Translations under genes and position numbers: made by a program
IMG/VR virus record: IMGVR_UViG_2711768067_000013
Location: 1-19,806 of that record
Length of the DNA: 19,806 nt
Reading direction: 5' to 3' (one strand)
From: a virus
Taxonomy: Duplodnaviria > Heunggongvirae > Uroviricota > Caudoviricetes
Part shown: positions 412-17,984 of the stretch, in pieces
Layout: every line of letters begins with the position of its first letter
Numbering within the stretch: position 1 is the stretch's first letter
Notes under the pieces: generated by a model
Databases searched by the model: none
What the model saw: only the letters and a program-made list of their open reading frames with translations
Told to the model about the DNA's origin: nothing

Positions 412-527
412 ATAGCTGCACCTGCACTGCCTGATGACAGAACAGTATTTTGATGAATTGCCAAGGTTACAATGGCACAAATGCGGCACAGGAGGAAACG
501 TGGTGTATTTAAATATGGGGTAACTCT

Positions 528-556
528 TTGATTTTAATGGTGCCGATAATAGGAGT
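528..556. repeat. Left direct repeat / candidate att site: 19-nt tRNA-Thr 3'-end core (538-556, tggtgccgataataggagt) plus ~10 bp of similar flank (ttgattttaa)
   Basis: Identical 19-mer recurs at 13601-13619, where it continues as a tRNA fragment; the upstream flank ttgatttt..taa is also shared with 13588-13600. The integrase gene starts ~140 bp to the right. Confidence 0.6.
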
Positions 557-698
557 AAAACACTCGATTAATCTCGTGTTAATGCCATCACCTACGACCA
601 TTACTAATTGATTGAATCTTATAGAAAAATCATCATTTTCTATGCGTCACAATCAATTTTCACATTACAAACGCTCCGACACTTTAGCCGGAGATTTT

Positions 699-1976
699 AT
701 GAGATACAAGCCTAACCAATACTTAATCTGTGATTCTTACGGTAACTACTATTTAAGGATCACGCTGCCTGTGTATATGCAGCCCTTTTTTGAAGGAAAA
801 AGGACGTTTGTCAGAAGTCTGCACACAAGTAATCTTCGTGTTGCACGTAGAAAGCGTGATCAGATTGCAGATGAATACCATTGCTTACGGGAGAGTGTTG
901 CCCCTGTAAACAGCACAATAGAAAACACGCTGGAACTGTTACGCAGTAAGGCTAAATACGCCAAAACAGCTACCAGAATGCAAGATACAGCGTCTTCGTG
1001 TCCGTCATTGCTTAAAATTCTTGAAATCTACCTGACAATTAACAGCACGAAGAAGAAGCCAGCCACTTTAGCTAAGGCAAGAAAAGCGGTAGAGATGTTT
1101 CTCTCCTACCGTAAAAAGCCTGATATTGCATTGCAAGATGTAAGCCGCACCACTGTTACAGGCTGGATTGAACACATGCAAAAAACTCTTTCACAACAAT
1201 CAATTGCAAATTATATCAGCCCAATGGCCCAGCTATGGGAATTAGCTTCATCACGTTACCACGATGCGCCAGAAAGGGCGCTCTCCCCCTGGCGAGGGCA
1301 TAGGCTTGATGTGGCACAAAGTAGAGAGAGCTACGAGGCATTTTCTAACAAAGAGCTATTGCAGGTGTTGCAAGTATTTTCCGGTAATTCAGCAGAAAAC
1401 AAAGAAATGATGGCTTTGTGTCTTATCGGTTTATATACAGGTATGCGGATCAATGAGATAGCAAGTCTCACAATAGACGATGTGAAAGAGATCGAAGGTG
1501 TGCTGTGTTTTGAAATCACACAGGGAAAAACGAAAGCTGCGGCACGTCTTGTGCCTGTGCATAGCCTTATCACTCCGTTGGTGTTGTCGCTGCGTGAAAA
1601 GCCTCACAATGGCTTTTTGTTCTATCACGCCAGCATTACAGAGCGTGCTGATGGTAAACGTTCCACGTGGCATACACAACGATTTACAAGAGCTAAACGA
1701 AAGGCTTTAGGGGAAAAGGGAACAGAAAGGAAAGTGTTTCATTCTCTGAGACACGGAGTAGCACAGCTTCTTGATCGAAATCAAATTCCAGAAGACAGGA
1801 TCGCCCTTCTCCTGGGCCATACACGCGGCAATACAGAAACATTCCGCACATATAGCAAAAATGCAGCTTCTCCAATAGAGCTTAAAAAATATATTGAGCT
1901 TTTACGCTACCCTGAAATAGAGAAAGGCTTATCAATCAATAAAAAATCAAATTTAAGGCGTAAAACAACGCTATAG
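699..1976 (+). CDS. int: Tyrosine-type site-specific integrase (phage/genomic-island type)
   Basis: ORF 612-1976 begins at TTG; the ATG at 699 follows a GGAG (688-691), and another in-frame ATG lies at 642. Catalytic-domain signatures are present: GMRINEI (Arg), HSLRHGVAQLL (His-x-x-Arg), LLGH, and TFRTYSK (Tyr). It sits beside the tRNA-derived repeat. Confidence 0.85.
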   Translation: MRYKPNQYLICDSYGNYYLRITLPVYMQPFFEGKRTFVRSLHTSNLRVARRKRDQIADEYHCLRESVAPVNSTIENTLELLRSKAKYAKTATRMQDTASSCPSLLKILEIYLTINSTKKKPATLAKARKAVEMFLSYRKKPDIALQDVSRTTVTGWIEHMQKTLSQQSIANYISPMAQLWELASSRYHDAPERALSPWRGHRLDVAQSRESYEAFSNKELLQVLQVFSGNSAENKEMMALCLIGLYTGMRINEIASLTIDDVKEIEGVLCFEITQGKTKAAARLVPVHSLITPLVLSLREKPHNGFLFYHASITERADGKRSTWHTQRFTRAKRKALGEKGTERKVFHSLRHGVAQLLDRNQIPEDRIALLLGHTRGNTETFRTYSKNAASPIELKKYIELLRYPEIEKGLSINKKSNLRRKTTL

Positions 1977-1984
1977 ATGTAATA

Positions 1985-2018
1985 AAGAGGCTTCAATATA
2001 GACTGATGCCTCTTTTAT
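1985..2018. terminator. Bidirectional rho-independent terminator between the convergent int gene and the 225-aa gene
   Basis: Stem agaggc (1986-1991) pairs with gcctct (2008-2013) around a 16-nt loop, followed by TTTTAT on the plus strand and an A/T-rich tract on the minus strand. Confidence 0.45.
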
Positions 2019-2056
2019 GATTATCTCGTTACAGAGCGTTTCATAGGCGTTTAAGG

Positions 2057-2734
2057 CTATTGTTTAAATACTGGCGTTACAACGTCTTGCCCTGGGCTTT
2101 TTTGATTTTTCTGTTCTGTTGTATTTACCTGCATTTTAACCTGTCCCCCTACAGATTTATTTGGTGCTGTTTTTACCGCAATTGCGCTTGTAGTTGCTTT
2201 AGAGACAAGACGGATTTGCTCAAAATCAAGAGTAAACAATAGGCTTTCGCTTGCTTCTTCTTCATAAGACATGCCAACTAACACAACGTTGTCATAATTT
2301 TTTAACTCAGTGACAAGTAGGAAAGGTTGGCGACTGTCCATCAACTGATTTAGGTATTCAAGCATAAGCATACGTCTATTGCCGTTAATTCCCGCATTCT
2401 TAATCATATCGGGATTGAGCTTCAATACGGTTTCAGAGATACGCCCCTGTAATGTGAACTTGTTATTCCGTATTTGAACATGATCACTAACTTCTGATCC
2501 TGATTCGACAGCATAGCTTGTAACGTCTGCATTTCTGCTAATTTTCGTCGATTCCACGCTATCAAATGATAATGCCTGGTAGTCATTGTAAGCAGCATTT
2601 GCACCACTGCCGAGGTTAGAGGCAATGATCGCAAAGCCGTTACCCCCTTTAGTTGTTCTACCGTTGCTATCGTTGCTTGTGCTGTTGATTTTCGCCTCAG
2701 TCGGGCGACCAATGGTTAACGGACCCATTGCCAT
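2057..2734 (-). CDS. Hypothetical protein (225 aa), last gene of the structural-like block
   Basis: ATG at 2734 with AAGGA about 9 nt upstream; 48 bp after the stop of the 613-aa gene. No recognisable catalytic motif. Confidence refers to coding status, not function. Confidence 0.5.
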   Translation of the reverse strand: MAMGPLTIGRPTEAKINSTSNDSNGRTTKGGNGFAIIASNLGSGANAAYNDYQALSFDSVESTKISRNADVTSYAVESGSEVSDHVQIRNNKFTLQGRISETVLKLNPDMIKNAGINGNRRMLMLEYLNQLMDSRQPFLLVTELKNYDNVVLVGMSYEEEASESLLFTLDFEQIRLVSKATTSAIAVKTAPNKSVGGQVKMQVNTTEQKNQKSPGQDVVTPVFKQ

Positions 2735-2781
2735 AATTTGTAATCCTTATTTAAGGGGGCTAAACAGCCCCACAGTGATGA

Positions 2782-4623
2782 TTAATAGGTTGACCCGCCT
2801 GACATAACACCCAGCGTTAATAGCTTGCTAAACTCAGCGGAGGATGCCTTTGATTTGAAGTCGATAAATTCGCTCAATCGTCCGGTGTCTGATTCGATAG
2901 TTAGCGGCACTTCTGCATTTACTTGTAATTCTGGATTGAAGTTAATAACAGGTGCAAAGGTGTAAGAAGGAGCCTTGAAAGCTTGTTGTGCTGCACTCTG
3001 TTTCAGATTTGCAATGTTTTGTCCTTCGAGACTGTATTGATTTACAGCCTGCGCCCCACCTACCGTTTCTTCTGGCATAAACCAGCTTTTAATAGTGTTA
3101 ACCAGGGAATTGCTGTTATCTGGCTTAATTGTTCCGGTGCCAGCGCCTTTATATTGATCAGGAGTGAGATTAGAAAGATTCTGCTTCATTCCTTCGTTAG
3201 ATAGTGGCGGTGCATCCCCTAAATTCTTCTGAATAGCTTCCGTCTTCTCGTCGTTTTTCATCAGCCAGTTGATTGTTTTCATTACGGCGTTAACCAATCC
3301 GCCGATAGCCTCGCCTAATTTGGTAAACATTGGCAGCATTGCAACCATGCTCTTTTTAAACTCTTCAATCACTTTCGGATCAAGAGATTTCATAAAGCCA
3401 TCAACAAAGGCGATCCCTTGTGAGTCAGAAAGCCCACTAAGTGCATTATTCAGTTCACGGAATTTAATAACGCTTTCCTGTTGTGCCTGCGTTACCCAGC
3501 GCCCTGATTCTCGTTGTTCTCGTGCTGATTGTTCCACTTCTTTAGCGGAGCGTGTCCAGTATTTAGAGGTGAGCATCAAATCATCAGCCAGATCTTCCAG
3601 ACGACTACCGATTTGTGCATCTGAATAGCCTTTAGCTACCATTCCCTGAACTGCTTTACTAACCAGACCAGCCGGATTATCAGCAAAGTCTTTTAGATCC
3701 TTTTTAGTTAGGAATCCTTCATTCATTAAAGTATTGATGCCGCTATCGCCGCCCTTCCATTCTCCTTTACCAGTTTTCTTATCAACTACATATTCAGCTT
3801 CATCATAAGATTTGGTTGCACGTTCACGCACATCTTTCATCTGATCGAGATACTTACGTTTACCTTGTTCGCCCATCATTGAATCAACGCCGTTTTTATA
3901 CGCCCATTGCTCAATATTGTTCATCTGGTTAACGTCTACACCGCCCAGCTTGGCACGGCTATACAATTCACCCAGCGTTTCAGCATTCGCAAAGCTGTTA
4001 GTAACAAATTCAGAGGCTTTGCTCATAGCCATATATGCAGCGCCAGCGCCTAAGCCGCCCAGCATAACAGCCGCAGCACCGCCGCCAATACTCCCGCTAC
4101 CCTTAACAGGTGCATAGGCTTTAGCGTGAGCGTTACGATTGCCATTAATCTTACGTTGTTGCTGTTGTAGGCGTTTCATTTGGCTATTCATACGTGCCAG
4201 ACTAATAGCGCCTCTTTCATATTGGAGGGCAATTTCTCTAGCCTGTGCAATAGCTTTATATTGTTCCGCTACAGAAAGACGGTGCAATGCGCTAATGCTT
4301 GCTCCAACGTCTAAAAGCTTTAATTCAGCCTTCTCTTTCCGTGCTGCCAGGGCTTTTTGTTCTCTTGCAACTACACGTTGAGCGGCTAATTGTGCTTTAG
4401 CATTGGCTTTATCTGCCTGTGCTTGCTTTTTAGCAATATCGTCTACGTCTTTTTTTGCTTTAGCGGTTGATTGTTTATGTGTCTTAACACGCAATTCTAT
4501 ATCTTTCACCGCCGCCATTTGTTTACGAAGTTTTTCTACTTCTGCTTTTGCTTTCTCTAATGATGGTCGGTTAACTTCGAAGGTGACAACGTTCGAGAGG
4601 CGTGCCACGTTTAGCTCTAACAT
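2782..4623 (-). CDS. 613-aa protein with an N-terminal K/A/E/Q-rich coiled-coil region (~160 aa) and a Gly/Ala-rich hydrophobic segment (GSGSIGGGAAAVMLGGLGAGAAYMAM); tape-measure-like architecture, function unproven
   Basis: Long ORF with ATG at 4623 and AGGGA upstream. The composition resembles phage tape-measure or internal virion proteins, but this is an architectural impression only. Confidence 0.6.
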   Translation of the reverse strand: MLELNVARLSNVVTFEVNRPSLEKAKAEVEKLRKQMAAVKDIELRVKTHKQSTAKAKKDVDDIAKKQAQADKANAKAQLAAQRVVAREQKALAARKEKAELKLLDVGASISALHRLSVAEQYKAIAQAREIALQYERGAISLARMNSQMKRLQQQQRKINGNRNAHAKAYAPVKGSGSIGGGAAAVMLGGLGAGAAYMAMSKASEFVTNSFANAETLGELYSRAKLGGVDVNQMNNIEQWAYKNGVDSMMGEQGKRKYLDQMKDVRERATKSYDEAEYVVDKKTGKGEWKGGDSGINTLMNEGFLTKKDLKDFADNPAGLVSKAVQGMVAKGYSDAQIGSRLEDLADDLMLTSKYWTRSAKEVEQSAREQRESGRWVTQAQQESVIKFRELNNALSGLSDSQGIAFVDGFMKSLDPKVIEEFKKSMVAMLPMFTKLGEAIGGLVNAVMKTINWLMKNDEKTEAIQKNLGDAPPLSNEGMKQNLSNLTPDQYKGAGTGTIKPDNSNSLVNTIKSWFMPEETVGGAQAVNQYSLEGQNIANLKQSAAQQAFKAPSYTFAPVINFNPELQVNAEVPLTIESDTGRLSEFIDFKSKASSAEFSKLLTLGVMSGGSTY

Positions 4624-4657
4624 GTTAATTGTTTCCCTGTATTATGATTGTTGTTTG

Positions 4658-4855
4658 TTATTGTTTTTTAGAACAGTAGTATGTAATTGCTTCAAAAGTG
4701 CTGCATCCAGTCTGAAACACACGCTGCCGCACATTATTTGCATCAATTTCTAAAAGGCGGCAAAGCGCCGATGTGTTTATAACTGATTCCTCGCTAATAG
4801 CTGCCAGTTCTTTTACAGATTTAAGAATTAATGCCTGTGAATTTTCTGTATTCAT
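4658..4855 (-). CDS. Hypothetical small protein (65 aa)
   Basis: ATG at 4855 with a purine-rich stretch upstream; lies between the 343-aa and 613-aa genes on the same strand. Confidence 0.4.
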   Translation of the reverse strand: MNTENSQALILKSVKELAAISEESVINTSALCRLLEIDANNVRQRVFQTGCSTFEAITYYCSKKQ

Positions 4856-5018
4856 TGGTTTTCTCTCACATATATATTTTTATTTGGTTTTGTAGACAGT
4901 AGAAAAACAAAAAGGGCAAAGAGATTCGTTACTGTATTTGCGCCTACAGGTTAGTTAATCCCTTTACCCTTAGCCCCGATTATTTTCAGACGATGGGGAA
5001 TCGTCTATTAACGCTTTA

Positions 5019-6050
5019 TTACGCAGCAGATCCGAAGATGATAGCTTGCGGAATGTTGTTTACTGGCAGATAAGATGTCTCAGTAACCACAGATGGGAAT
5101 TGGAATTCATCCTTGATTAGATATTGGTGATGTAACACGGCATCTTGACCTAACTCAGCATGACGCACACCAACGCCGCTATGAAGCTGGTAACACTGTG
5201 CCGCTTTATCCATTACCGGAACAATTGCGAAACCGTTCTCTCCGATGTGAGCAACAATCTCAGGAAACATTGACACATCAATAGCAGTGATCCCGCCAAT
5301 CTGGAAAGAGTCATAGGCTGGGTTAGAATCAACCATACGGGTAAACAGGGCCGTAGCACTCGCATCACCTGCATATTTCACCATGTCACTGATCAGCGGG
5401 TTAGATGACAAACCATCAGCAGCAGCGCCAGCAGCAAAGATAATTACACCAGTTCGCTTTGCAGCAAGAGCAGACCCCAGCTTTTCACTCTGTAAGCGCA
5501 CCGCTTTACGAATAGCAAGGAACGGGTTAACAGTAGTCGATGCAAAGTCGATAGCGGGTACCGTGGTTTTAGCCTGACCGTCGAGGAAGTCGAGATCACC
5601 TTGTCCGGCATATTCAGATTCAACTTTCAGTCCCAGCAGCGCGGTAATCAGATCCACTTCAACACGGTTTGCGTGTGAACGGTAATGAGCCTCAGAGAAA
5701 TCATTAACCGCTACCAGCATAGCATCAGAACGGTTTGGATATTGGCGGCTGTATTGTTCCAGGTCACGAGAAGTAACAGCGTTAATACTGCCGACGTGTT
5801 TCATCTGGAAAAGTTTGTTTGACCATTCCTGACGTTTAGAGGCGTTCCAGTCGCTTTGAGCGTAAGGCGAGGTTTCCCCAGCTACCTGCACAAACTGATC
5901 AATCAGGTCGGTAAGAAGAATGCTGTTTTCTGTATGATATTGCACATCGAACAGATCGAGATTAGTAATCAGGGTATTAAGTGCATTCTCATAAGCAAAT
6001 GGAGTTACTACCGCAGTATTAACACCAAAATATGTTGATAAATCATTCAT
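5019..6050 (-). CDS. 343-aa hypothetical protein, candidate major virion structural protein (capsid- or tail-tube-like); function not established
   Basis: ATG at 6050 with AAGGAAAA 8 nt upstream, and only 14 bp after the upstream 127-aa gene. A stem-loop follows the stop (4988-5006). No enzymatic motifs; the call rests on size and gene context. Confidence 0.6.
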   Translation of the reverse strand: MNDLSTYFGVNTAVVTPFAYENALNTLITNLDLFDVQYHTENSILLTDLIDQFVQVAGETSPYAQSDWNASKRQEWSNKLFQMKHVGSINAVTSRDLEQYSRQYPNRSDAMLVAVNDFSEAHYRSHANRVEVDLITALLGLKVESEYAGQGDLDFLDGQAKTTVPAIDFASTTVNPFLAIRKAVRLQSEKLGSALAAKRTGVIIFAAGAAADGLSSNPLISDMVKYAGDASATALFTRMVDSNPAYDSFQIGGITAIDVSMFPEIVAHIGENGFAIVPVMDKAAQCYQLHSGVGVRHAELGQDAVLHHQYLIKDEFQFPSVVTETSYLPVNNIPQAIIFGSAA

Positions 6051-6064
6051 TATTATTTTCCTTG

Positions 6065-6448
6065 TTAAGTCGTAGGGATCGCAAGTTCTTCATAACCAGC
6101 AATTACAAAGCCGAGAGATTGCAGTTTTGCAATAACACTTGCCTTTTCCATGCTGTTAAATTCAATCCCATCTTCAGCCAGAATAACGAAAGTAGGATGT
6201 GCAACCACTACGCTTTCCTGTCCTTCATAAGCCGGTTCAACTACTACGTGAGCAATATCAGATGCGGTTGTTGCTTTGGTGCCATCGGCTTTCAGCAAAG
6301 CCCCGACAATAAGATCGTCAGTGAGAGGTGAAGCCAGTTTGACGAGGCGATCTTGCAGCACTGGATCAGCAGCGTAAGCTACTACCTTACAGCGTGAACG
6401 GGAGTTATCCGCATTCACTGCTTTTAATTTTCCATATGGGTTAGCCAT
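6065..6448 (-). CDS. 127-aa hypothetical protein, possibly a head-decoration or tail-terminator-like partner of the 343-aa protein
   Basis: ATG at 6448 with AAAGGAAAA upstream, an RBS context almost identical to that of the 343-aa gene; 4-bp gap from the upstream 65-aa gene. Confidence 0.55.
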   Translation of the reverse strand: MANPYGKLKAVNADNSRSRCKVVAYAADPVLQDRLVKLASPLTDDLIVGALLKADGTKATTASDIAHVVVEPAYEGQESVVVAHPTFVILAEDGIEFNSMEKASVIAKLQSLGFVIAGYEELAIPTT

Positions 6449-6452
6449 AAGA

Positions 6453-6650
6453 TTATTTTCCTTTCAGTTGTTTAATTTTAGATTTAAGGGCATCAGCAAG
6501 ACTAACCGCATCAGCCGATTTAAATAATTGAGCAGTGGTAGAACGAAGACTTTCGGGAGTAACTCCCAACAGTGCGGCAACCTTAATGAGGTTTTCATCA
6601 CTAACAATCATCGTTTCCCCGTCTTTGCTGATAATCATTTCTTGTTTCAT
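6453..6650 (-). CDS. Hypothetical small protein (65 aa from the ATG at 6650; the track ORF extends to a TTG at 6692)
   Basis: ATG at 6650-6648 with AGGAA 9 nt upstream; first gene after the terminator-like hairpin at 6682-6731. Confidence 0.45.
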   Translation of the reverse strand: MKQEMIISKDGETMIVSDENLIKVAALLGVTPESLRSTTAQLFKSADAVSLADALKSKIKQLKGK

Positions 6651-6681
6651 AAATAACGTTCCTGTTAGTGCCAGACAAATA

Positions 6682-6731
6682 AAAAGCCCCAATGCCGTAA
6701 GAGGTTAATTCTGACCAGCAAAGGGGCTTTA
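6682..6731 (-). terminator. Terminator-like hairpin immediately upstream of the structural-like block (minus-strand sense)
   Basis: AAAGCCCC and GGGGCTTT arms (6682-6690 and 6724-6731) around a ~33-nt loop, followed on the minus strand by TTTTTATTT. The large loop makes this a weak call. Confidence 0.3.
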
Positions 6732-7326
6732 ACGTGCGGGCAATTACATAATTGATAAGTTAAACTATAAGAGGATTAAACATATCAGCAAATACACTTT
6801 TTAAATATACTTGATGATATGCTTAAAGGGTGAATAGATACTCCTGAAAACATGCTCTTAGGAAAACATGCGGAATCAATCAGGAATATCTATTCGGGGC
6901 GCGGTGGCCAACCGCTATCTTTCATGGTGTGGATGCACCAGTCAGATTTTAAGGAATCACTATTCCAATCTACTCACAGATTAAATTTTTAATAATGATT
7001 AACTACACCAACAGTAATCTACCGTTTCAGAAAATCGTTTTTACAACCAAAGCTTATAGATCCGCATTCTATAAAACCCGTTTTGCTATCAATATTTCCA
7101 AAGGTTATTGCACAATTCTTAGCTAAACTCTCTACTTGCGGCTAACGCTACGCAGATGATAGTTTTTTGACAACAACTTAATAGATTATTCTGTTACTAA
7201 CTTCTGTCATTAAATAAGAGTTTAATGATGTTAGTAAATAGTTATAAAATATAACTATCAGTGTAAGGCTCTTTAATGTTTTCGGACAAAATAAGGAGCT
7301 TTAGGATAAGCATAGATGAAAATAAG

Positions 7327-7364
7327 AGCGGGAAGGGCAAGGAGATAACACCTACCCGCTTTTA
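7327..7364. terminator. Bidirectional terminator-like hairpin in the 930-bp spacer
   Basis: agcgggaagg (7327-7336) pairs with cctacccgct (7351-7360) with one mismatch; T-tracts follow on both strands (TTTTAT plus; CTTATTTTC minus). It lies ~270 bp downstream of the 102-aa gene in minus sense. Confidence 0.4.
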
Positions 7365-7633
7365 TCAAAATTAAGCACAATGCCTAACAACATTCATCAA
7401 CACAACGTAGAAACAATCAACAATCAAAGAGGGAGTTATGATTATTCTAAAACTTCTTGAGGGGATGGAAGGTAATATTTGTTAGAGGTTAATGCCACTC
7501 AACCCTTGAGGCTATCACCTTCCATATGCAGGGATTTATGACAGTAGAAGGATTAACACCAGTCAAAACCTTTTTATCTACCCCTAATATCATTATATAA
7601 TGAAATTGTTATAAATGCAAATGATTTTCATTA

Positions 7634-7942
7634 TCACTTAGAAGAAATAGCACTTTTTGCTAAATCATCTACTAATTGCTGAATCTCTTCACTTGCAGCC
7701 TTTAACGTGCTGGCGCTGCTGCTGATGGTTTGAGTGCACAGCCTGGCATCGTCCTCTGATAGCTCTAAATCGCTCACCAGAGAGATAAAATCGTCAAGGC
7801 TTACATTCACCTTCATTAAGCTAATAACGCATTGAGAGAGCGTGTAATCGCATAAATCTGAATAGGCTTGATTTATTCTTGTTTGTAGTGAGATAGTCAG
7901 ATCTAAAAGTTGTTCCATTGCATTGCTAATATCTTCTTCCAT
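7634..7942 (-). CDS. Hypothetical acidic protein (102 aa)
   Basis: ATG at 7942 overlaps the stop of the upstream 67-aa gene (TAATG), suggesting translational coupling. Confidence 0.5.
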   Translation of the reverse strand: MEEDISNAMEQLLDLTISLQTRINQAYSDLCDYTLSQCVISLMKVNVSLDDFISLVSDLELSEDDARLCTQTISSSASTLKAASEEIQQLVDDLAKSAISSK

Positions 7943-8145
7943 TATGCGGCTTCTCCTTGTAATGCATCATTAATCATATTCAATACGATGTTAAAAGGTG
8001 TCTTGAGCGTCAGCACTTCATCACGATAACGCTCTAATGCTTCGTAGTCTTCTGTTTCTTTTGCCAGTCGGATTAACTCAGCATAGTTTTTTGCATCAGA
8101 CAGGATCATCTGAAATAATTGTGTTTCCTGTATATGGTCGATCAT
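7942..8145 (-). CDS. Hypothetical protein (67 aa)
   Basis: ATG at 8145 with AAGGAA 6 nt upstream. Confidence 0.5.
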   Translation of the reverse strand: MIDHIQETQLFQMILSDAKNYAELIRLAKETEDYEALERYRDEVLTLKTPFNIVLNMINDALQGEAA

Positions 8146-8162
8146 TGTTGTTCCTTTTATTT

Positions 8163-8549
8163 TTAGTTTGAACGTTTGTTAGATGCGAGAGTGTCGATCA
8201 GGTGCTGCATCAGATCTGTTTCTGTAACGCCGCCTACCTGATTGTTGAAACTATTAAAACCGATATAGTGCCTGTAGCTGGTAAAATTTAACAGCTGCCA
8301 TTTCTTTAATGTGCCAGGTTCTATAATCGTTGTCTTTCTTGTTCTGGGTTTGAAATACACACCATCACCCATTGATTGAATAATTTCTAATTCTTCGTTT
8401 GTAAGTGGTGGGCTGTTAGATTCTAAAATGAAGATTATCTCTTCCCCTGGAATTTCGTTATTGGTGTGTGTCGGTGGACGTTGTCTTGTTGAATTGAAGT
8501 TACTGTTTTTTTCAATACGTTTTAAGTTGTTCTTTTTCTTTCTTCCCAT
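8163..8549 (-). CDS. Hypothetical protein (128 aa), basic N-terminus
   Basis: ATG at 8549 with AGAGGGA upstream. Confidence 0.5.
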   Translation of the reverse strand: MGRKKKNNLKRIEKNSNFNSTRQRPPTHTNNEIPGEEIIFILESNSPPLTNEELEIIQSMGDGVYFKPRTRKTTIIEPGTLKKWQLLNFTSYRHYIGFNSFNNQVGGVTETDLMQHLIDTLASNKRSN

Positions 8550-8645
8550 TTTCCCTCTTTTTATGTGGATTATAAAAACTGAATGCCATAGTTACGATGA
8601 ATATCGCCATAAATGCATTTGCCATATGTATTGCCCGATCTGTTG

Positions 8646-8903
8646 TTATTGATTGTTTGTGATAAACAATTCAAAATCTTTGTTTAATTTCAAAAGACGA
8701 AATGTAGTGTGGTTAATCCCTTCATAATCCAGCACACCGAACGATGTAAAATGATTTACGTGTTGTGCGCTGTAGCCGCCTAAACTACAAAAGCTAACCA
8801 CTGTCGGTGGTGAAAACTCTATTTCCAAAATAGCTTTTAAAATGTTGTATCCGCTTTCAGTTATTTCAATAGTTTTGTTTCCTATAGTGATGTTATAAGT
8901 CAT
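8646..8903 (-). CDS. Hypothetical protein (85 aa)
   Basis: ATG at 8903 with AAGGAG 6 nt upstream. Confidence 0.5.
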   Translation of the reverse strand: MTYNITIGNKTIEITESGYNILKAILEIEFSPPTVVSFCSLGGYSAQHVNHFTSFGVLDYEGINHTTFRLLKLNKDFELFITNNQ

Positions 8904-8912
8904 TTATTCTCC

Positions 8913-9587
8913 TTAGAATGGTATTGAATCGTATATTTCACTTTTTTCTCTTAGAGATATTATCAGATCGTGAAAAGCCTGTTTCTCAAGATAGATATTC
9001 TTTGAATCTAATGCTCGTTTTACAAAATCTTCTGTTTCTTCGTGCGGTGGCTTCTTGTTATCAAGGGAAAGAAGCCAGTTAAAAATCTTTTCCGGGAACT
9101 CTGATTCCTGTATTTCTTCTTCAACGATGATTTCTGAAACATTCAATATTTCATTAGATTCGTTTTCTTTCTCAGAAGGATCAGGTAGTGATGACTCTCT
9201 AGGGGGAGTAATATGTGCATCTGTGAGAGGTAGCGCACGTAATTTTAATGGACGTTTTGGGATTCGTTCTCCGACCTCTTCTAAAAGACCGATTTTAATC
9301 ATAAGACCAATCAATTCATTAACTGTCTTACGGCTACAGCCACAAACTTTACTTAACTTCGTTTGTGTTTCAAAACATATCCCCCCTGATTTCTCCCAAT
9401 CTGAAACATAGCAATATAATTTTTGCATTTCTGCACTAAACTTCGCTTTTCCATCCTCAATATTTGAGGAGTAGATGAATTCAATCTCACAAAAGTAGTG
9501 TGGTATATTCAAAGTTCGGTCTTTAATTTCTCCTGTTTGTTGATCAACATACTGGTATTTTTCACGAATCAATTTAATTTTAGACAT
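8913..9587 (-). CDS. 224-aa putative DNA-binding protein (winged-helix-like segment SRKTVNELIGLMIKIGLLEE); candidate regulator or replication-initiator-like protein
   Basis: Track ORF 8913-9644 starts at GTG; the ATG at 9587 has a strong AAGGAG 8 nt upstream. The C-terminal half is acidic. Function is inferred from the motif only. Confidence 0.5.
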   Translation of the reverse strand: MSKIKLIREKYQYVDQQTGEIKDRTLNIPHYFCEIEFIYSSNIEDGKAKFSAEMQKLYCYVSDWEKSGGICFETQTKLSKVCGCSRKTVNELIGLMIKIGLLEEVGERIPKRPLKLRALPLTDAHITPPRESSLPDPSEKENESNEILNVSEIIVEEEIQESEFPEKIFNWLLSLDNKKPPHEETEDFVKRALDSKNIYLEKQAFHDLIISLREKSEIYDSIPF

Positions 9588-9640
9588 TAGAATTATCTCC
9601 TTATAAATCACGCTTAATGCGCTACTAAAGTGAATGAGGA

Positions 9641-9808
9641 TCACTTACCCTTTTTTTGTTTGATGTTCTCTGCTGCTTCAGTAATGATTTCTAACATCAA
9701 ATCACTGACCATAATTTGCCTTTTCTTGGCTTCAGCAAATAAAATCTTGAAAATTTCAGGGTCAACGTGTAGGTAAGTGCGTGGAATTGGTTTCTTGGTT
9801 TCGCTCAT
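9641..9808 (-). CDS. 55-aa ribbon-helix-helix-like small protein (MSETKKPIPRTYLHVDPEIFKILFAEAKKRQIMVSDLMLEIITEAAENIKQKKGK); absent from the ORF track because it is under 60 aa
   Basis: Hand-translated: ATG at 9808-9806 with AGGAGAAGGAG upstream, TGA at 9643-9641. A predicted strand followed by two helices fits Arc/CopG-type repressors. Confidence 0.45.
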   Translation of the reverse strand: MSETKKPIPRTYLHVDPEIFKILFAEAKKRQIMVSDLMLEIITEAAENIKQKKGK

Positions 9809-9829
9809 AGTTTTCTCCTTCTCCTGTTA

Positions 9830-10012
9830 TTATTCTTTCTCTGCTCCTGCCTTACGCAGTTCATCAATAATTTTTAGTGCATCGTCAAAACATTTTTCAC
9901 GCTCTGGATAACCACAGCGTCGCGCTGTGTTCCTGTTCATCCTTACTTTAAAACGATTGATCTCACCACGTTTCCAGGCTTCAACTACATCCTGGGGAGT
10001 GAAATACTTCAT
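9830..10012 (-). CDS. Hypothetical protein (60 aa), first gene of the minus-strand array
   Basis: ATG at 10012 with AGGAGG 7 nt upstream; 21 bp before the RHH-like ORF. Confidence 0.5.
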   Translation of the reverse strand: MKYFTPQDVVEAWKRGEINRFKVRMNRNTARRCGYPEREKCFDDALKIIDELRKAGAEKE

Positions 10013-10134
10013 TAATTAACCTCCTATTCTATTTGGTTAAAAGAAAAAACACCTTGCAAGCCTTGTTGGGCTTCAAAGTGCGGTGCATTGGTTTAATTAC
10101 TTAGAGGATAAGAATGTTTTCTGTCCCTAATATT

Positions 10135-10163
10135 ACTTTACCACGACTAAAAGCTTTTGTCAA
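10135..10163 (-). promoter_or_regulatory. Candidate sigma70 promoter for the minus-strand array (TTGACA, 17-bp spacer, TAAAGT)
   Basis: Minus-strand TTGACA is the reverse complement of 10158-10163; TAAAGT is the reverse complement of 10135-10140. Motif match only. Confidence 0.3.
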
Positions 10164-10324
10164 CCCCTATCCATAAAAATATTGATCATTTTCAGTGTGT
10201 TATAATTTTTCTTAGCAATTCGTGCTCTTACGGGTGCTCCTATTCTTCCTTATTCTCTAAAACGCTCTAAAACGCCCTCTGACGAGGTTTTGATAAATAC
10301 AATACATTCACTTATGTAGAGGCT

Positions 10325-10780
10325 GTTTAGCTCGCCAGAGGCTTATTTAAGGGGCTTATTTTGTATTTGTTAGGTATATGGGAAGATGATGATAGATAAA
10401 ATCTAATTTCAGACATCTTATAAAATACCTGTAAAGCTCCTCAGAAGCTCTATAACGAGCTAATCTATTACCGCTAAGTGTTTCCCTGCCTTATATACGT
10501 TTAGCTCGCCTACGGCTTGATTTAAGCGGTAGAATCTTATTTAACCTTCAACTACTAAAACCATTCTTTCTTTTTTGTTTGTTGTTGGTTGTTGTCTGTG
10601 TCTATGTGCTAACATCGCTAACGCGTAGCACACAAGGTTATTGCACTCGTCAGAGTATTGCACAATAGATTTTCTCTTAAATAGATTGATGATCGTTAGA
10701 TTGGCGTAAGCCTCATCAATGGAACTATTGAAGCGCACAGCGCAAGACTATTTAGCCTTACGCAAGCCGTAGGCTATTTG
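10325..10780. repeat. Repeat family in the noncoding region: two direct ~28-31-bp copies (10325-10352, 10499-10529) and one inverted, itself palindromic copy (10749-10780)
   Basis: Copy 1 gtttagctcgccagaggcttatttaagg; copy 2 gtttagctcgcctacggcttgatttaagcgg; copy 3 reverse complement contains GCCTACGGCTTG. A TTG/TGT-rich tract (about 10565-10610) and several CTAAC pentamers lie between copies 2 and 3. Confidence 0.5.
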
Positions 10781-10961
10781 CACATAGTAGATTACATATT
10801 CGTTGTGAGCGGCATTAGCGAACATATATCTACTAACTAACATCAACAAACAAAAACTATGTGTTATGACAAGCAGTCTAACGACTAACACTCTAACTTG
10901 TGCAAGGTTCTGGCGAATGCCAATAGATTAAGGGATAGTCAAAGACTCCCTAACGGGTATA

Positions 10962-11045
10962 CCTATAATTATTCTTATAAAGATAAAAAAGAATTATATT
11001 ATATAGTTTAATAGTTAGTTTTATTATTAGTATTATAGATGTTAG
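10962..11045. other. Very AT-rich tract next to the iteron-like array; candidate DNA-unwinding element
   Basis: About 85 bp of almost pure A/T directly upstream of the palindrome array. Confidence 0.35.
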
Positions 11046-11053
11046 TCTTATTG

Positions 11054-11224
11054 TGTAACCTTTCGTTACAACCAATCATCTGCCGATGTAACGTATCGTT
11101 ACTACCGATGTGTAATATCGTTACATTCAATAATTAGTCTATGTAACGAATCGTTACTACAAAATTTCTTACAGAGAGTATTTCAGATAGCTGAATGTAA
11201 CCCATCGTTACATCCATCGTTACA
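11054..11224. repeat. Iteron-like array: five palindromes with a TGTAAC / GTTACA core (11054-11070, 11087-11103, 11111-11125, 11142-11158, 11196-11212) plus an extra half-site (11216-11224); two units form a tandem 22-bp repeat (11083-11126)
   Basis: Read directly, for example TGTAACctttcGTTACA, GTAACGtatCGTTAC, GTAACGaatCGTTAC and TGTAACccatcGTTACA. Could be a replication origin, a recombinase res-like site or a repressor operator. Confidence 0.6.
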
Positions 11225-11661
11225 TCCATTTATCACATAACATCTGTGCAATGATCTTCTAAAAGTGTTTCTTACTATCAAAAATTAAACATCTAAAACA
11301 GGCTTAAATTCAATGTAATTGATGATTAATCCCTGTGTAATTCCTACGTAAAAATTCAATGAAAAGTAGCTTAAAAGTGCAATTCTTACTTTCTTCACTT
11401 TTACATCACTTTCGCAAAGCCTTGTGTAATGCGGCATATAGCGCATCACTGCAAAATTGTTGCTCAATAAACGTTCTATCATTTGTCGAACAAGTTTTCT
11501 TTAATGCAACAAAAAATTATTTTTTCAAAATAAACACACCATTTAATAGCTTGCTAATTTTACCAAAACGTAACTACATGCTTCTCATGCAAGACGTGTA
11601 GTGATAAAGCAGGCTAAATCACCACACTAAAAACCTTCGAATTTCGTAGTGAAAAAAGTCC

Positions 11662-11691
11662 TTTACACACCTAATCAACACGATCAATAAT
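11662..11691 (+). promoter_or_regulatory. Candidate promoter for the serine recombinase (TTTACA, 18-bp spacer, AATAAT)
   Basis: Motif match ~35 bp upstream of the ATG at 11727. Confidence 0.3.
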
Positions 11692-11726
11692 CACTACACA
11701 CAAATCAACACAGAAGGAAAATGAAA

Positions 11727-12278
11727 ATGGCTAATATTGGATACATTAGGGTATCGACTGTGCAACAAAACACAGACCGTCAATTAGCTGGAGTAACTCT
11801 TGATAAAGTCTTTGAAGATAAAGCGTCAGGCAAGAACACTCAGCGCCCACAGTTTGAGGCAATGATGAACTATGTGCGGGAGGGTGACGTGTTACACGTC
11901 CATAGTATTGATCGCCTTTGTCGTAATACAGCCGACCTTCTGGCAACGGTTGAGCAATTAACAGAGCGCGGCGTGTCTGTGCATTTCCATAAAGAAGACT
12001 TTAAGACAGGGAAGAACTCTCCCGCAGGGAATATGATGCTCACAGTGCTTGCAGCAGTGGCACAAATGGAACGTGAAATGATGCTTGAGCGGCAACGTGA
12101 AGGGATCGCCGCAGCTAAGGCCGCTGGGCGTATAGCAAAACGTGGTAATGGAAAAGCAATTGATCGAGCAGGAATTGCTGCCGCTCTCGCGAATGGTGGA
12201 TCAATTCGGAGCGTAGCAAAAGATTTCAGTGTCAGCACACAGACGGTGCAACGTATCAAGAAAGAGCAGGAAGCGTAA
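11727..12278 (+). CDS. Small serine recombinase (resolvase/invertase family, ~183 aa)
   Basis: N-terminus MANIGYIRVSTVQQNTDRQ carries the resolvase catalytic-Ser motif; a C-terminal helix-turn-helix-like region (SIRSVAKDFSVSTQTVQRIKK) follows. The ATG at 11727 is better spaced from the AAGGA than the ATG at 11721. Confidence 0.85.
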   Translation: MANIGYIRVSTVQQNTDRQLAGVTLDKVFEDKASGKNTQRPQFEAMMNYVREGDVLHVHSIDRLCRNTADLLATVEQLTERGVSVHFHKEDFKTGKNSPAGNMMLTVLAAVAQMEREMMLERQREGIAAAKAAGRIAKRGNGKAIDRAGIAAALANGGSIRSVAKDFSVSTQTVQRIKKEQEA

Positions 12279-12618
12279 TGCCTCCTGATATTTGAGAATT
12301 GTCGCTGCGTGGACCTGACGCCGCTGATCTTCTCGTTAAGCGATGATCACGTATGCGCCGATTTCAGAGAAAAAGACAGTAACTGAACTCACTATGAAGG
12401 CTAAACGCATCTTTACACTTGATGAAAACGTTCAAAAAACAACCTAACCCCAAAATTCAACAAATTGCAACACATTGTTTTTAAAAGAAAATTAAATCTA
12501 CATCAAATATTGGTTGACGTAGATTGAGGTGAATAGTAGACTATTAGGGTAAATTACCACCCTTGCAACATCATTTAATGCATGTTCTAATCTTCCTATC
12601 GTAAAACCGGAGGAAGTT

Positions 12619-12777
12619 ATGCATTTACTTTCAAAACATCTTCACACTATTCACTTTCTCGTTATTGATGTATTCGTTGTGGCTATTAGTTACCGCATTT
12701 GCATCGCTTCCAGTGAAGAGATGGACGCTGTTGCAATTATTGCTCAAGCAATGGCGATGTTAACTAAACGACTTTAA
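12619..12777 (+). CDS. 52-aa small hydrophobic protein (MHLLSKHLHTIHFLVIDVFVVAISYRICIASSEEMDAVAIIAQAMAMLTKRL); not in the ORF track
   Basis: ATG at 12619 with GGAGGA 5 nt upstream; contains a predicted membrane-like helix. Confidence 0.4.
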   Translation: MHLLSKHLHTIHFLVIDVFVVAISYRICIASSEEMDAVAIIAQAMAMLTKRL

Positions 12778-12843
12778 TAATTTCACTATCAGGTGCATAA
12801 ACACATCTTTGATCGCTGGATGTGTTATGCGCCTACTGGTGGT

Positions 12844-12996
12844 TCAATCCTTAAGCCATTTCAACTCACTAAGGAGTTTTCTTTCTTCGTTCTCTCGCTG
12901 TTTACGCTCTAGCCAGGCTTTTCCCTCTGGCGTAGACAGGAACTTACGAGCGTGAATCTTGCGGTTATTACGTTTTATAGCTGCAATGTTTTTCAT
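12844..12996 (-). CDS. 50-aa highly basic small protein (MKNIAAIKRNNRKIHARKFLSTPEGKAWLERKQRENEERKLLSELKWLKD); not in the ORF track
   Basis: Hand-translated: ATG at 12996-12994 with GAGG upstream, TGA at 12846-12844. Convergent with the 52-aa ORF. Confidence 0.4.
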   Translation of the reverse strand: MKNIAAIKRNNRKIHARKFLSTPEGKAWLERKQRENEERKLLSELKWLKD

Positions 12997-13600
12997 CGTG
13001 TGCCTCTGTATTCATATGAAAATTAACAAGTTACATACTACACAGGGAGACTACGCATAAAACACAATACAAGTAAAGATACATTTTCAAGACAATAGGA
13101 GCCATAAAGCGCCTTTGATGGTTATACCAAAAAATAAGCGCCGTAGGCGTATCCACTAAAAGGGCTTTTTCACAAAAGCTATGAAGTCTTAGCAGTTCTT
13201 CTCTTATCAGGCACCCGTTGTACTCCGGTGGACGAAACCGTGCTAGAGCTTGATTCTTTCCCGATCAAGTTAGGTTTTGAAGAGGTGGGCTTTGATCCAC
13301 TATTGCACTTAAAACTCTTCCCATCATTTAGCCTGTTTATCCTCTGCAACGTCTCACGACGTGTAGCATCATTGGACACCGCGCCAGGTGTGGAACATCT
13401 TGCTAAGAGTTTTGGTAGAAGGTTTAGAGACGGTGGCACGTCTTCCAGCTTCAAAGGAACTTGTTACGAGGTTGAGCCTGGGAACTACTCGCCCATACGT
13501 GTTACACTACCAAAGCCCATAACAACGTATAGGCGTTTGTAAGTGATAACAGAAGATACAATTTCTTAGAGAAGTTAAGCTAAGTTATTGATTTTCTTAA

Positions 13601-13646
13601 TGGTGCCGATAATAGGAGTCGAACCTACGACCTTCGCATTACGAAT
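13601..13646 (-). tRNA. Truncated tRNA-Thr (CGU anticodon) 3' fragment, 46 nt (anticodon loop through T-arm, acceptor 3' strand and CCA); att-site remnant, not a functional gene
   Basis: Reverse complement reads ATTCGTAATGCGAAGGTCGTAGGTTCGACTCCTATTATCGGCACCA, with the GGTTCGA T-loop and CCA end; sequence diverges from tRNA after 13646. As I recall it, this matches the 3' part of E. coli thrW. Confidence 0.7.
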
Positions 13647-13951
13647 TATAAGAATCCGCTTCTAATTCAAAGCATTACCCCATCAACACTGCGCTCACAC
13701 GTCCCACCACATCAAAACATGTAAAGCCTTGCAAGCCATTGCGAGGCCTTATGTGTCTCAGTTTTGTCCCACCTTGTATTACGACTTACATAGCCAATGA
13801 AGATAAACGTGACGACAAACGGCGCAGCAGTCTTCTTTTCCTTCATACTTTCCCCACCCAGCATGCATACCTTTATGCCATAACTGAAGTTTATGTCTGT
13901 TATGAGCGAAAAGCAGACATTACACTAAATTATTTAGGTTTACTTTTATCA

Positions 13952-14950: not shown

Positions 14951-14956
14951 ACAACC

Positions 14957-17982: not shown

Positions 17983-17984
17983 TT

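Follow-up and report, generated by a model that had tools for sequence, protein, structure and literature searches.

A conserved stretch that probably encodes a large structured RNA precedes the capsid genes of satellite-like islands in Enterobacteriaceae: a candidate leader controlled by terminator read-through

Late gene control in phage lambda combines the pR' promoter, the 194-nt 6S RNA leader, the tR' terminator and Q antitermination. In P4 immunity, pairing of seqA, seqB and seqC in the leader with the CI RNA (~69 nt, processed by RNase P) causes premature termination, the target of this control being the replication operon. Antitermination by boxA and Nus factors operates in rrn operons, at lambda nut sites and in CRISPR-array leaders; we take the boxA forms to be CGCUCUUA and UGCUCUUUAACAA, the former being the lambda boxA sequence. 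The put RNAs of HK022 (~70 nt, two stem-loops) act in cis and make RNA polymerase resistant to terminators.

The locus considered here lies within a window of 19,806 nucleotides (positions 1 to 19,806 of the IMG/VR virus record IMGVR_UViG_2711768067_000013), in an island of ~13 kb with the gene order integrase, replication genes, RNA, decoration, capsid, tape-measure and Dit-like genes. The integrase was recognised by Pfam (3.2e-17) and a wHTH initiator-like protein by a weak PHROG match (9e-6), and no terminase, portal, protease, lysis or scaffold gene was recognised in the island by Pfam and PHROG scans. This content, an integrase with replication genes but no complete set of virion genes, fits a satellite layout. 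The same scans returned none of the markers of proteobacterial PICI (AlpA, Pri-Rep), of capsid-forming PICI (portal, protease, small terminase) or of P4-like elements (sid, psu, delta, alpha), and the capsid protein had no tblastn match among 50,697 phage records. Judged by gene content, the island family appears to be phage-satellite-like and undescribed, and a full-text literature search found no description of the RNA or of the island. The genes around the locus are as follows, t2 being a predicted terminator detailed below:

2057-2734, Dit-like gene of the structural block
2782-4623, tape-measure-like gene of the structural block
5019-6050, capsid gene (lambda-E-like), downstream of the decoration-like gene
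6065-6448, decoration-like gene, downstream of the 65-aa gene
6453-6650, minus strand, 65-aa gene, the first after t2, with an HTH-like segment LIKVAALLGVTPESLRS
7634-7942, minus strand, 102-aa gene, the last of the upstream block (gene calls)

Between the ATG of the 65-aa gene (6650) and the stop of the 102-aa gene (7634) lies a gap of 983 bp (6651-7633), AT-rich and poor in ORFs. A sequence-only reading of this DNA had described the stretch as non-coding, and we agree: its longest ORF is 46 aa, no ORF is common to the diverged copies compared, and PGAP places no feature in it across ~280 E. coli genomes. A small ORF or leader peptide was thus rejected, none being conserved between diverged copies, as was a 34-aa ORF at 7489-7593 whose start codon falls within the -10 element of the promoter described next. 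A tRNA/tmRNA search of the window returned nothing, and IS1 insertions are seen in the gap in a few strains. By itself, a single ORF-free gap or a single hairpin proves little.

Broadly, the gap has the layout of a transcription unit on the minus strand, with a near-consensus sigma-70 promoter that begins 14 nt past the stop of the 102-aa gene, and no terminator was found between that gene and the promoter:

7592-7620, minus strand, RNA promoter: -35 TTGCAT (7615-7620), 17-nt spacer, -10 TATAAT (7592-7597)
6673-7585, minus strand, predicted untranslated RNA of ~910 nt, its ends placed from promoter and terminator

The promoter scan also gave an overlapping reading, TTTGCA-18-TATAAT, at 10 of 12. 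Both hexamers are invariant in 17 distinct variants in which spacer and discriminator vary, and an equivalent promoter scoring at least 10 of 12.5 (range 10-12.5) is present in 83 of 86 related loci. No other minus-strand promoter site was found by the scan between 6300 and 7590 of the window; within the last 250 nt plus leader, promoter-like sequences scored at best 8.4 on average, against 11.1 for the RNA promoter, and reached 10 in one case out of 36. An operator palindrome at the promoter was tried and rejected (TCATTATATAATGA over the -10, matched by 7% of shuffles; family-wide arms of 5.2 vs. 4.6 in shuffles). The predicted RNA would start at ~7585/7584 (AGGGGUAGAUAAAAAGG...) and end in the U-run past t2. 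Many family members begin with (A/U)GGG(G)U, and the hexamers that come next (TAAGAT, TAATAT or TAGATA-like) may represent the -10-like sigma-dependent pause element that a Q-type module would have in its first ~25 nt. The whole predicted transcript folds with a minimum free energy of -255.5 kcal/mol; its z of -10.2 compares with -4.1 when the opposite strand is folded.

Comparison with relatives included all related loci with enough upstream DNA, i.e., 86 loci from E. coli, Citrobacter, Kluyvera, Klebsiella/Raoultella-type and other Enterobacteriaceae. Every one of them (86/86) has a promoter, an ORF-free RNA and a terminator at the same place, with the RNA ranging from 247 to 939 nt and a terminator called at the place of t2 in all 86. 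The 5' two thirds of the RNA are nearly invariant among the E. coli variants, the Klebsiella-type relatives show seven covarying pairs in the RNA, and the 3' domain is shared by islands that have only ~20% identity between their capsid proteins. The recurrence in 86 of 86 loci, the covariation of the helices and the stronger fold of the gene strand together argue that this arrangement is more than chance. No nhmmer profile link was detected between the window RNA and the RNAs of other genera, so that homology across groups rests on position, signals and short motifs, and whole-length RNAalifold on 26 diverged RNAs gave no usable result, the alignment being too gappy. Among viral contigs, a 15-mer scan returned 58 matches, only three of which are real copies of the RNA. 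The window has no Rfam 15 match at gathering thresholds and only chance-level ones at E-values up to 10 (4,227 models), eight related loci gave only an unrelated TPP riboswitch, and the window DNA matched none of the 50,697 phage records at E-values up to 1e-5, with chance matches only at E-values up to 10. The RNA is a candidate new RNA family.

The 5' part of the predicted RNA carries the following features, in 5' to 3' order:

7553-7566, minus strand, small 5'-proximal hairpin UUGAC-UGGU-GUUAA
7544-7554, minus strand, conserved AAUCCUUCU(A/C)C, 3' of this hairpin (variant comparison)
7465-7525, minus strand, hairpin H1, a 13-bp stem AUGGAAGGUGAUA/UAUUACCUUCCAU around conserved CCUCAAGGG...CUAAC (-25.1 kcal/mol, z = -4.3)
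7386-7428, minus strand, G/U-rich tract with short direct repeats (UUGAUUGUUGAUUGUUU...)
7318-7359, minus strand, t1, internal terminator-like hairpin GCGGGUAGG...CCCUUCCCGC followed by UCUUAUUUUC (-17.5 kcal/mol, z = -4.7)
7322-7329, minus strand, boxA-like CGCUCUUA, an exact match within t1 (motif search)
7209-7220, minus strand, motif CUCUUAUUUAAU (family-wide form CUCUUAUUAAU), with 6-nt complementarity to the P-c loop UAAGAG described below

Variants hold the pairing of the small 5' hairpin through G·U and A-U exchanges. In locus L012 the internal motifs of H1 are enclosed by a 13-bp stem that shares none of its sequence, and locus L106 has no such hairpin. The G/U-rich tract is kept in the E. 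coli variants, with similar stretches in other groups, and may represent either an unstructured RNA segment or DNA iterons. At ~+225 to +270 of the predicted RNA, t1 coincides with a terminator-like hairpin that had been proposed at 7327-7364, with arms at 7351-7359 and 7328-7337, an A-run before and a U-run after; a hairpin plus U-run stands at this place in the window and in loci L106, L012 and L014, on unrelated stem sequences. The boxA-like motif forms the 3' arm and tail of t1 and lies partly inside a helix rather than in free single strand. In its place many relatives carry GCUUUUUA; of 39 representative relatives, 13 have YGCUCUUUA between +200 and +290. The small hairpin 3' of the motif bears no resemblance to boxB.

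Towards its 3' end, the RNA is predicted to fold into a series of hairpins that closes with t2:

6953-6958, minus strand, first copy of GAUUCC, just 5' of P-a
6915-6958 (including GAUUCC), minus strand, P-a, with outer AUCU/AGAU and inner UGGUG-CAUCCA-CACCA (6925-6940), a covarying helix
6901-6915, minus strand, P-b, GCGGU-UGGCC-ACCGC
6832-6895, minus strand, P-c, a 16-bp stem (arms 6880-6895 and 6832-6847; -29.5 kcal/mol, z = -8.3)
6872-6877 and 6851-6870, minus strand, in the apical part of P-c, the second GAUUCC and a small stem presenting the loop UUUUCCUAAGAG, respectively
6776-6826, minus strand, long A/U-rich hairpin between P-c and t2 (-21.1 kcal/mol, z = -8.6)
6676-6730, minus strand, t2, predicted intrinsic terminator with arms AAAGCCCC (6723-6730) and GGGGCUUU (6683-6690) (-23 kcal/mol, z = -4.7)

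Folded individually, the E. coli variants all give the same three-hairpin 3' domain. In P-a all cells of the alignment are paired, five of nine pairs show double changes, and the loop CAUCCA is invariant. P-b, at 96% of cells paired, is the small GC-rich hairpin that the sequence-only reading had singled out; it is indeed present and conserved, and in 3 of 10 sequences a G-C pair is replaced by A-U, the one compensatory change seen. Taken together, P-a and P-b have 98.6% of cells paired and double changes in 6 of 14 pairs. Slid controls gave 24-58%, and none of 500 shuffles reached the observed score. Seven versions of the P-c stem (16-17 bp) were seen, none with a mismatch; both partners differ in as many as 8 of 16 pairs, and wherever only one partner has changed, the result on the gene strand is G·U. 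Across groups, the YCCUAAG motif sits in a hairpin loop in 21 of its 27 occurrences.

At t2, the stem is directly followed by the U-run UUUUUAUUU (UUUUAUUUG; UUUUAUUU), and 22 nt separate its end from the ATG at 6650. The loop, at ~30 nt including inner pairs, is unusually large and holds AUUAACCUCUUAC (6697-6709), and in locus L109 a G-C pair of the stem has become U-A, a compensatory change. With its stable G+C-rich stem and U-run, conserved with pairing kept, t2 has the sequence features of an intrinsic terminator and is predicted to act as one. It corresponds to a second hairpin and U-tract noted earlier at 6682-6731, and the earlier view of both hairpins as terminator-like on the gene (minus) strand, with the second immediately 5' of the first structural gene, is borne out here. 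Because the loops of t1 and t2 exceed its 3-8 nt limit, a simple terminator scan listed neither; its sole listing there, a plus-strand terminator at the GC hairpin, is regarded as spurious.

The repeat search found AUUAACCUCUUAC three times, and this sequence is complementary to the P-c loop, with three or four CUCUUA motifs facing UAAGAG. This complementarity suggests, and only suggests, that the P-c loop pairs with CUCUUA-type motifs. One compensatory case was read by eye (a UAAGCG loop with a CGCU motif in L012), and a pattern search for the loop-to-CUCUUA pairing caught the U-runs of terminators instead and was uninformative.

Set beside the systems introduced above, the locus is closest in layout to the lambda late module, with which it shares a sigma-70 promoter, an untranslated leader, an intrinsic terminator and late genes without their own promoter, the default product being, by prediction here, a short non-coding RNA. 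It differs from lambda in a leader of 0.25-0.9 kb that is elaborately folded, with covarying helices and two terminators, in the absence of any recognised Q gene or Q-binding element in the island, in its place just ahead of head genes, on an island of ~13 kb that lacks lysis, portal and terminase genes, and in the lack of sequence similarity of the stretch to phages. As in P4, a satellite-type element has a promoter followed by a structured untranslated leader, termination would be the control point, and a hairpin-loop sequence has several complementary copies in the transcript (UAAGAG vs. CUCUUA, a suggested pairing); unlike in P4, structural genes rather than a replication operon lie downstream, and there is no sequence or Rfam similarity. 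A long untranslated transcript needing protection from Rho recalls the boxA systems, but the motif here lies within a hairpin, no boxB/N partner was identified, and many relatives differ at this site. Like the put RNAs, a structured RNA sits just downstream of the promoter and upstream of terminators, and could license only those polymerases that started there, but it is ten times longer and shows no evident similarity.

Two further comparisons concern the fold. All three hairpins of the ColE1 RNA I model (RF00106) can be aligned with the 3' module of a Kluyvera relative, which consists of P-a, the CCUAAGA hairpin and the terminator, but at 26 bits against a gathering threshold of 47 (L007) and with many non-canonical pairs; the window RNA has no such match, and neither an antisense partner nor a ColE1-type origin context accompanies it. 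The likeness to RNA I thus appears to be one of architecture only. GOLLD and ROOL are likewise large, intricately folded and found on mobile or viral elements, but their host range differs, the RNA here is fixed as the leader of a capsid operon, and it matched none of the 4,227 Rfam models.

Overall, the stretch is very probably a gene for a structured RNA. As to its role, we favor, at a probability of roughly 55%, a structured leader whose terminators must be read through for capsid and tail genes to be expressed. The sigma-70 promoter just past the last upstream gene would drive a folded, untranslated RNA of ~0.9 kb on the minus strand; by default, transcription would stop at t1 or t2 and give non-coding RNA(s), and the structural genes would be on only when termination is overridden. 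The trigger may be a protein of the island or of a helper phage, with the invariant loops CAUCCA, YCCUAAGAG and GAUUCC as its recognition sites, or the RNA itself acting on polymerase, and the boxA-like motif would shield the long untranslated transcript from Rho. With no room and no recognisable promoter between t2 and the gene, a polymerase expressing the capsid, decoration, tape-measure and Dit genes must pass t1 and t2, which makes control by read-through the most economical reading. The signals are observed directly, as are their conservation in every relative, the covarying helices with strand-specific G·U and the absence of ORFs; from them we infer that the promoter fires, that t1 and t2 terminate and that read-through is regulated. 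The sequence-only reading had offered antitermination or an activator-dependent promoter for late-gene control. The former is favored by the lack of a sigma-70-like promoter between t2 and the gene, whereas nothing points to the latter, given a promoter that reaches 10-12.5 of 12.5 in 83 of the 86 loci.

The amount of structure counts against a leader: a promoter and a terminator would suffice for one, and 0.25-0.9 kb of conserved structure is more than required. So do the failure to find an antiterminator in the island core, the missing profile link to other genera and the position of the boxA-like motif partly inside a helix. Such structure beyond the needs of an attenuator, the invariant loops on covarying stems, the three copies of AUUAACCUCUUAC complementary to the P-c loop, the sub-threshold RNA I-like layout of the relative's 3' module (26 vs. 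47 bits) and the retention of the RNA module with capsid lineages only ~20% identical would all suit a stand-alone non-coding RNA acting in trans, a possibility to which we give distinctly less weight. Promoter and t2 would here delimit an abundant structured RNA with its target in the helper phage, the host or the island, working for example through loop-loop pairing of the YUNR-type loop CCUAAGAG, by titration of a protein or as a part in particle assembly, with capsid gene expression by leak-through as a secondary matter; this is compatible with the leader model. However, no target was found, similarity to the 50,697 phage records was lacking even at E-values up to 10, and the structural genes have no promoter of their own, so that the RNA unit is not independent of them. 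Nor does loop pairing with downstream ribosome-binding sites covary, as read by eye, and an anti-Shine-Dalgarno role of the CCUCCUAAGA loop was rejected on the same ground. Somewhat more speculatively, and in our view doubtfully, the RNA might form a new class of large structured RNA (0.25-0.9 kb), restricted to an undescribed family of Enterobacteriaceae satellites that carry capsid and tail genes, with a role beyond attenuation. It would then be a helper sensor, i.e., an RNA-guided or protein-triggered switch for processive antitermination with the invariant loops as recognition elements, or a component in the assembly or packaging of the island's lambda-E-like capsid, for which no scaffold, portal or terminase is recognisable.

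It is improbable that the stretch works mainly as DNA, as a replication origin downstream of the initiator-like gene or a cos/pac site, with the hairpins as cruciforms or protein-binding dyads and transcription incidental or origin-activating. Given an initiator-like wHTH protein and no terminase or portal, an origin and a packaging site are needed somewhere in the island, and the region is AT-rich, with short direct repeats in its GU-rich tract (7386-7428). Yet each one-sided change in the P-c helix is a G·U on the gene strand and would produce an A·C mismatch if the DNA formed a cruciform, folding differs greatly between the two strands, and all 86 loci retain promoter and terminator; moreover, the gap holds no lambda-type cosN, the count in the window equals chance expectation, and no iteron family stands out in the repeat search. 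More improbable still, to the point of being negligible, is a passive spacer, a deletion scar or decayed genes, as which an AT-rich, ORF-poor stretch that tolerates IS1 in a few strains might pass. The near-consensus promoter with invariant hexamers, the helices maintained by compensatory changes, the near invariance of the 5' two thirds among E. coli variants and the presence at the same place in every relative across genera speak against it, and there is no trace of a shared ORF. The idea of an insulating spacer, put forward in the sequence-only reading, is therefore not upheld, nor is that of a scar, since a long RNA with compensated helices is retained across genera; and no homologous island was found to carry coding genes in place of the stretch.

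If the leader reading holds, a factor that overrides t1 and t2 would be expected, and none was identified. No Q- or N-like family was found in the island core, and the 102-, 67-, 128- and 85-aa proteins have no Pfam, PHROG or NCBIfam match. A weak Q-like PHROG match (E = 2.7e-4) falls on a 293-aa ORF at 13952-14833, 6 kb from the RNA promoter, and the annotation of the L001 island copy lacks this ORF; a helper-encoded Q antiterminator is possible. The best-conserved upstream protein, considered for this role, is that of 128 aa, from an orphan family of 22 clusters with an invariant Lys/Arg-rich N-terminus, for which no PDB relative was found and the AlphaFold model was unusable (pLDDT 49.7).

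New large structured RNAs are rare, and clear boundaries, covariation and a fixed context make this one directly testable. Under the leader model, the RNA would be the point at which the element decides on particle building, and blocking or triggering it would control spread. It also marks an unstudied island family in a region that annotation pipelines at present leave blank. About 5% of complete E. coli genomes contain such an island, as do many other Enterobacteriaceae, with up to three copies per genome and differing insertion sites, and the carriers include pathogenic lineages such as O104:H4 and avian/extra-intestinal strains.

The gap between the 102-aa gene and the first structural gene (6651-7633, 983 bp) holds no ORF longer than 46 aa, and PGAP places no annotation within it in ~280 genomes. 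The three hairpins described here by the sequence-only reading are all present at their reported positions. That reading overlooked a minus-strand (gene-strand) promoter which starts 14 nt past the stop of the 102-aa gene, and which is the sole strong promoter-like site on this strand from 6300 to 7900. The signals are arranged as follows:

7615-7620 and 7592-7597, minus: promoter, TTGCAT and TATAAT with a 17-nt spacer
7318-7359, minus: t1, internal terminator-like hairpin, GCGGGUAGG...CCCUUCCCGC, then U-run UCUUAUUUUC
6676-6730, minus: t2, final terminator-like hairpin, AAAGCCCC...GGGGCUUU, then U-run UUUUAUUUG

The end of t2 lies 22 nt from the ATG at 6650. The placement of the promoter and t2 thus suggests a unit made of a promoter, an untranslated RNA of ~910 nt, a terminator and the first structural gene; transcription, termination and regulation of this unit are read here from sequence.

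A capsid-protein profile served to collect related loci in genomes, in viral contigs and in metagenomes; E. coli gap variants were added, and every relative has an ORF-poor gap at the same position. In gene orientation, each of the 86 loci that extend far enough upstream carries a promoter at the gap start, as well as a hairpin and U-run just ahead of the small gene preceding the decoration and capsid genes. The promoter score is ≥10 (of 12.5) in 83 of these loci, and the remaining three show a good promoter a little downstream of the automatic call. Across 17 variants the hexamers are invariant, and the spacer and discriminator differ. The distinct RNA sequences (n = 74) span 247-939 nt, the shortest from Klebsiella/Raoultella-type islands and the longest of the window's type. 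In two E. coli variants (L012, 4313-4525; L014, 4366-4581) an additional gene of 70-71 aa, absent from the window, follows the 102-aa gene; it precedes the RNA promoter and leaves the RNA in place. No ORF common to diverged gap copies was found. Replacement of the spacer by coding genes in homologous islands, the refuting condition named by the sequence-only reading, was thus not seen among the islands checked. IS1 insertions occur in the RNA gene of a few E. coli strains, and HH107 has other sequence in place of the upstream block and the RNA's 5′ half (loci: NZ_CP060950.1 and NZ_CP060946.1, H17 and H18; L105, 3061-3910).

Four lines of evidence support the view that the gap specifies an RNA, on the gene strand. 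The minus-strand transcript folds at -255.5 kcal/mol (z = -10.2 relative to shuffles), vs. -215.5 (z = -4.1) for the plus strand of the same stretch. E. coli variants differing at half of the 3′-domain positions each fold, taken alone, into the same three-part domain, which comprises a GAUUCC motif and the following helices:

6915-6958, minus: the GAUUCC motif and P-a, outer helix and inner hairpin with invariant loop CAUCCA
6901-6915, minus: P-b, the small GC hairpin of the sequence-only reading
6832-6895, minus: P-c, 16-17 bp stem whose tip has a second GAUUCC and a small stem presenting the loop YCCUAAGAG

For P-a and P-b (ten distinct sequences, scoring limited to these two helices, with the apical part of P-c swapped for AAAA in the alignment), 98.6% of cells were paired and 6 of 14 pairs had double-sided changes, a covariation score reached by none of 500 shuffles; a slid-partner control gave 24-58% pairing and hardly any double changes. 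P-c exists in seven sequence versions with zero mismatches, up to 8 of 16 pairs being changed on both sides between versions, and every one-sided change yields a G·U pair. This points to RNA from the gene strand, as the other strand or a DNA cruciform would have an A·C mismatch. The 5′ hairpin H1 (7465-7525) is represented in L012 by a 13-bp stem of unrelated sequence enclosing the same internal motifs, t1 stems are unrelated across four lineages with a U-run after each, and the short Klebsiella-type RNAs covary as well (7 pairs with double-sided changes). The RNA also contains 3-4 copies of a 13-nt motif, AUUAA(C/A)CUCU(U/A)A(C/U) (6697-6709, 7214-7226, 7481-7493, also 6765-6777), one of them within the t2 loop. 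Six bases of this motif are complementary to UAAGAG in the P-c loop, whose CUAA fits a YUNR U-turn, and the two may form a loop-loop or pseudoknot contact.

Over the final 250 nt no promoter-like site was found: the best site there scores 8.4 on average, compared with 11.1 at the RNA promoter, and a score of 10 is reached in only 1 of 36. Given this and the 22 nt separating t2 from the ATG, polymerases expressing the capsid and tail genes would have to cross both t1 and t2. Structural-gene expression would then occur by read-through of both hairpins from the RNA promoter, an arrangement in agreement with the antitermination proposed by the sequence-only reading. No antiterminator gene was found. 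The most conserved upstream gene (8163-8549, minus; 25 of 38 representatives) codes for 128 aa. The basic N-terminus of this protein, MGRKKKNNLKRIE, is invariant and predicted to be disordered, and the protein is a candidate partner of the RNA. Its family is an orphan one, with 22 clusters in a set of 1.8 billion representatives; no known relative of the protein was found, and its AlphaFold model is poor and not usable. A boxA-like CGCUCUUA lies in the t1 tail, with similar motifs in 13 of 39 representative relatives, and might shield the long untranslated RNA from Rho, although it is partly base-paired.

The proposed read-through resembles in its logic the lambda late operon (pR', 6S RNA, tR' and Q) and the P4 immunity leader. 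Rfam 15 has no match for the window's RNA or its relatives; the only sub-threshold hit, to RNA I in one relative (26 vs. 47 bits), reflects a likeness in three-hairpin layout only. No description of the RNA or the island was found in the literature searched. The region is best read as a leader and terminator that control the late genes of a phage-like element, unusually long and structured for its kind, and as a hallmark of an undescribed island family. We give the full leader/attenuator reading slightly better than even odds (about 0.55). The G·U pattern of helix changes and the absence of cosN speak against a DNA-level role (ori, cos/pac), though part of the region may still have one. Action of the RNA in trans is a serious rival, since the conserved structure goes beyond what a simple attenuator needs, and is compatible with a leader role.

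The genes flanking the gap are on the minus strand. In transcription order, the upstream block starts with two small genes (60 and 55 aa) and one for a 243-aa protein that has a winged-helix segment and matches phage replication initiators weakly (PHROG 9e-6); genes of 85, 128, 67 and 102 aa, for which family searches returned no match, follow. Downstream, a 65-aa gene and a 127-aa gene, the latter in the head-decoration position, precede the gene for a 343-aa protein, in whose relatives Pfam PF03864 (lambda E-type major capsid protein) is found. After it come a second 65-aa gene, genes for a tape-measure-like protein of 613 aa (PHROG 2e-31) and for a tail protein of Dit-like type (Pfam 1.6e-27) and, at the end on the opposite strand, one for a tyrosine integrase. 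Given this content, the labels "regulatory" and "structural-like" block used by the sequence-only reading are fair. No family match was found for the 65-aa product of the first gene past t2 (6453-6650, minus). It has a segment resembling a helix-turn-helix, LIKVAALLGVTPESLRS, and could act in DNA binding or in packaging specificity.

The island spans 612-10012 of the window, and no terminase, portal or protease gene was found in the element. It lies between yqeG and tRNA-Gly in FDAARGOS_1267 and at different insertion sites elsewhere, with 289 of 5,426 complete E. coli genomes matching the region (up to 3 copies per genome). Among 50,697 phage records the capsid protein had no tblastn match, and no phage record resembling the DNA was found. 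The element probably represents an undescribed phage-satellite family.

A sequence profile built on the Citrobacter/Kluyvera-type RNAs fails to pick up the RNA of the window, so established homology across all groups is not claimed. Common to all are the position, promoter and terminator, and modular hairpins with variable stems, and the groups' short motifs follow one order: 5′ (A/U)GGG, GA(U/A)UCC, CUCUUAUUAAU and the YCCUAAG loop. YCCUAAG lies within the loop of a hairpin in 21 of its 27 occurrences, and the stems that bear it differ widely in sequence. The same kind of RNA module also precedes a second capsid lineage (protein ~20% identical to the window's), with a decoration-like protein of 120-124 aa and a small protein of 69-74 aa, found at:

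L106, 637-2265: second structural-gene lineage
L153, 5841-7472: second structural-gene lineage
L165, 5890-7521: second structural-gene lineage
L104: second structural-gene lineage

In L104 and L106 the 3′ RNA domain ahead of these genes is the one seen in the window. At the DNA level, the RNAs of the window and L106 are 64% identical, and the adjacent capsid and decoration genes 39-42%. RNA and structural genes thus appear to be exchanged as separate modules. Close E. coli variants have a nearly invariant RNA over its 5′ two thirds, whereas the last ~300 nt vary along with the structural genes (variable sites <20% at 7523-6924 vs. 45-60% at 6923-6626), which indicates a putative recombination junction inside the RNA gene, with a breakpoint around 6925.

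A second ORF-poor, very AT-rich stretch (10013-11720, ~1.7 kb, GC 0.30-0.36) separates the early genes from a serine recombinase gene and has a promoter-like TTGACA-17-(TG)TAAAGT (10163-10135, minus) ahead of the 60-aa gene. The remainder of the window includes:

11721-12278: serine recombinase/invertase
13952-14833: 293-aa protein, DnaJ-type zinc finger, weak REase and Q-like hits
14957-15613: truncated integrase
15766-16677: Mrr-like nuclease
17100-17924: GIY-YIG protein

This part (11721-19806) resembles a distinct patch of defence or mobile-element DNA, and is unlike the region adjoining the island in FDAARGOS_1267. A TPP riboswitch at the edge of a Buttiauxella contig (L003, 12420-12504; Rfam RF00059, 68 bits) is host DNA beside the island, unrelated to the gap RNA.
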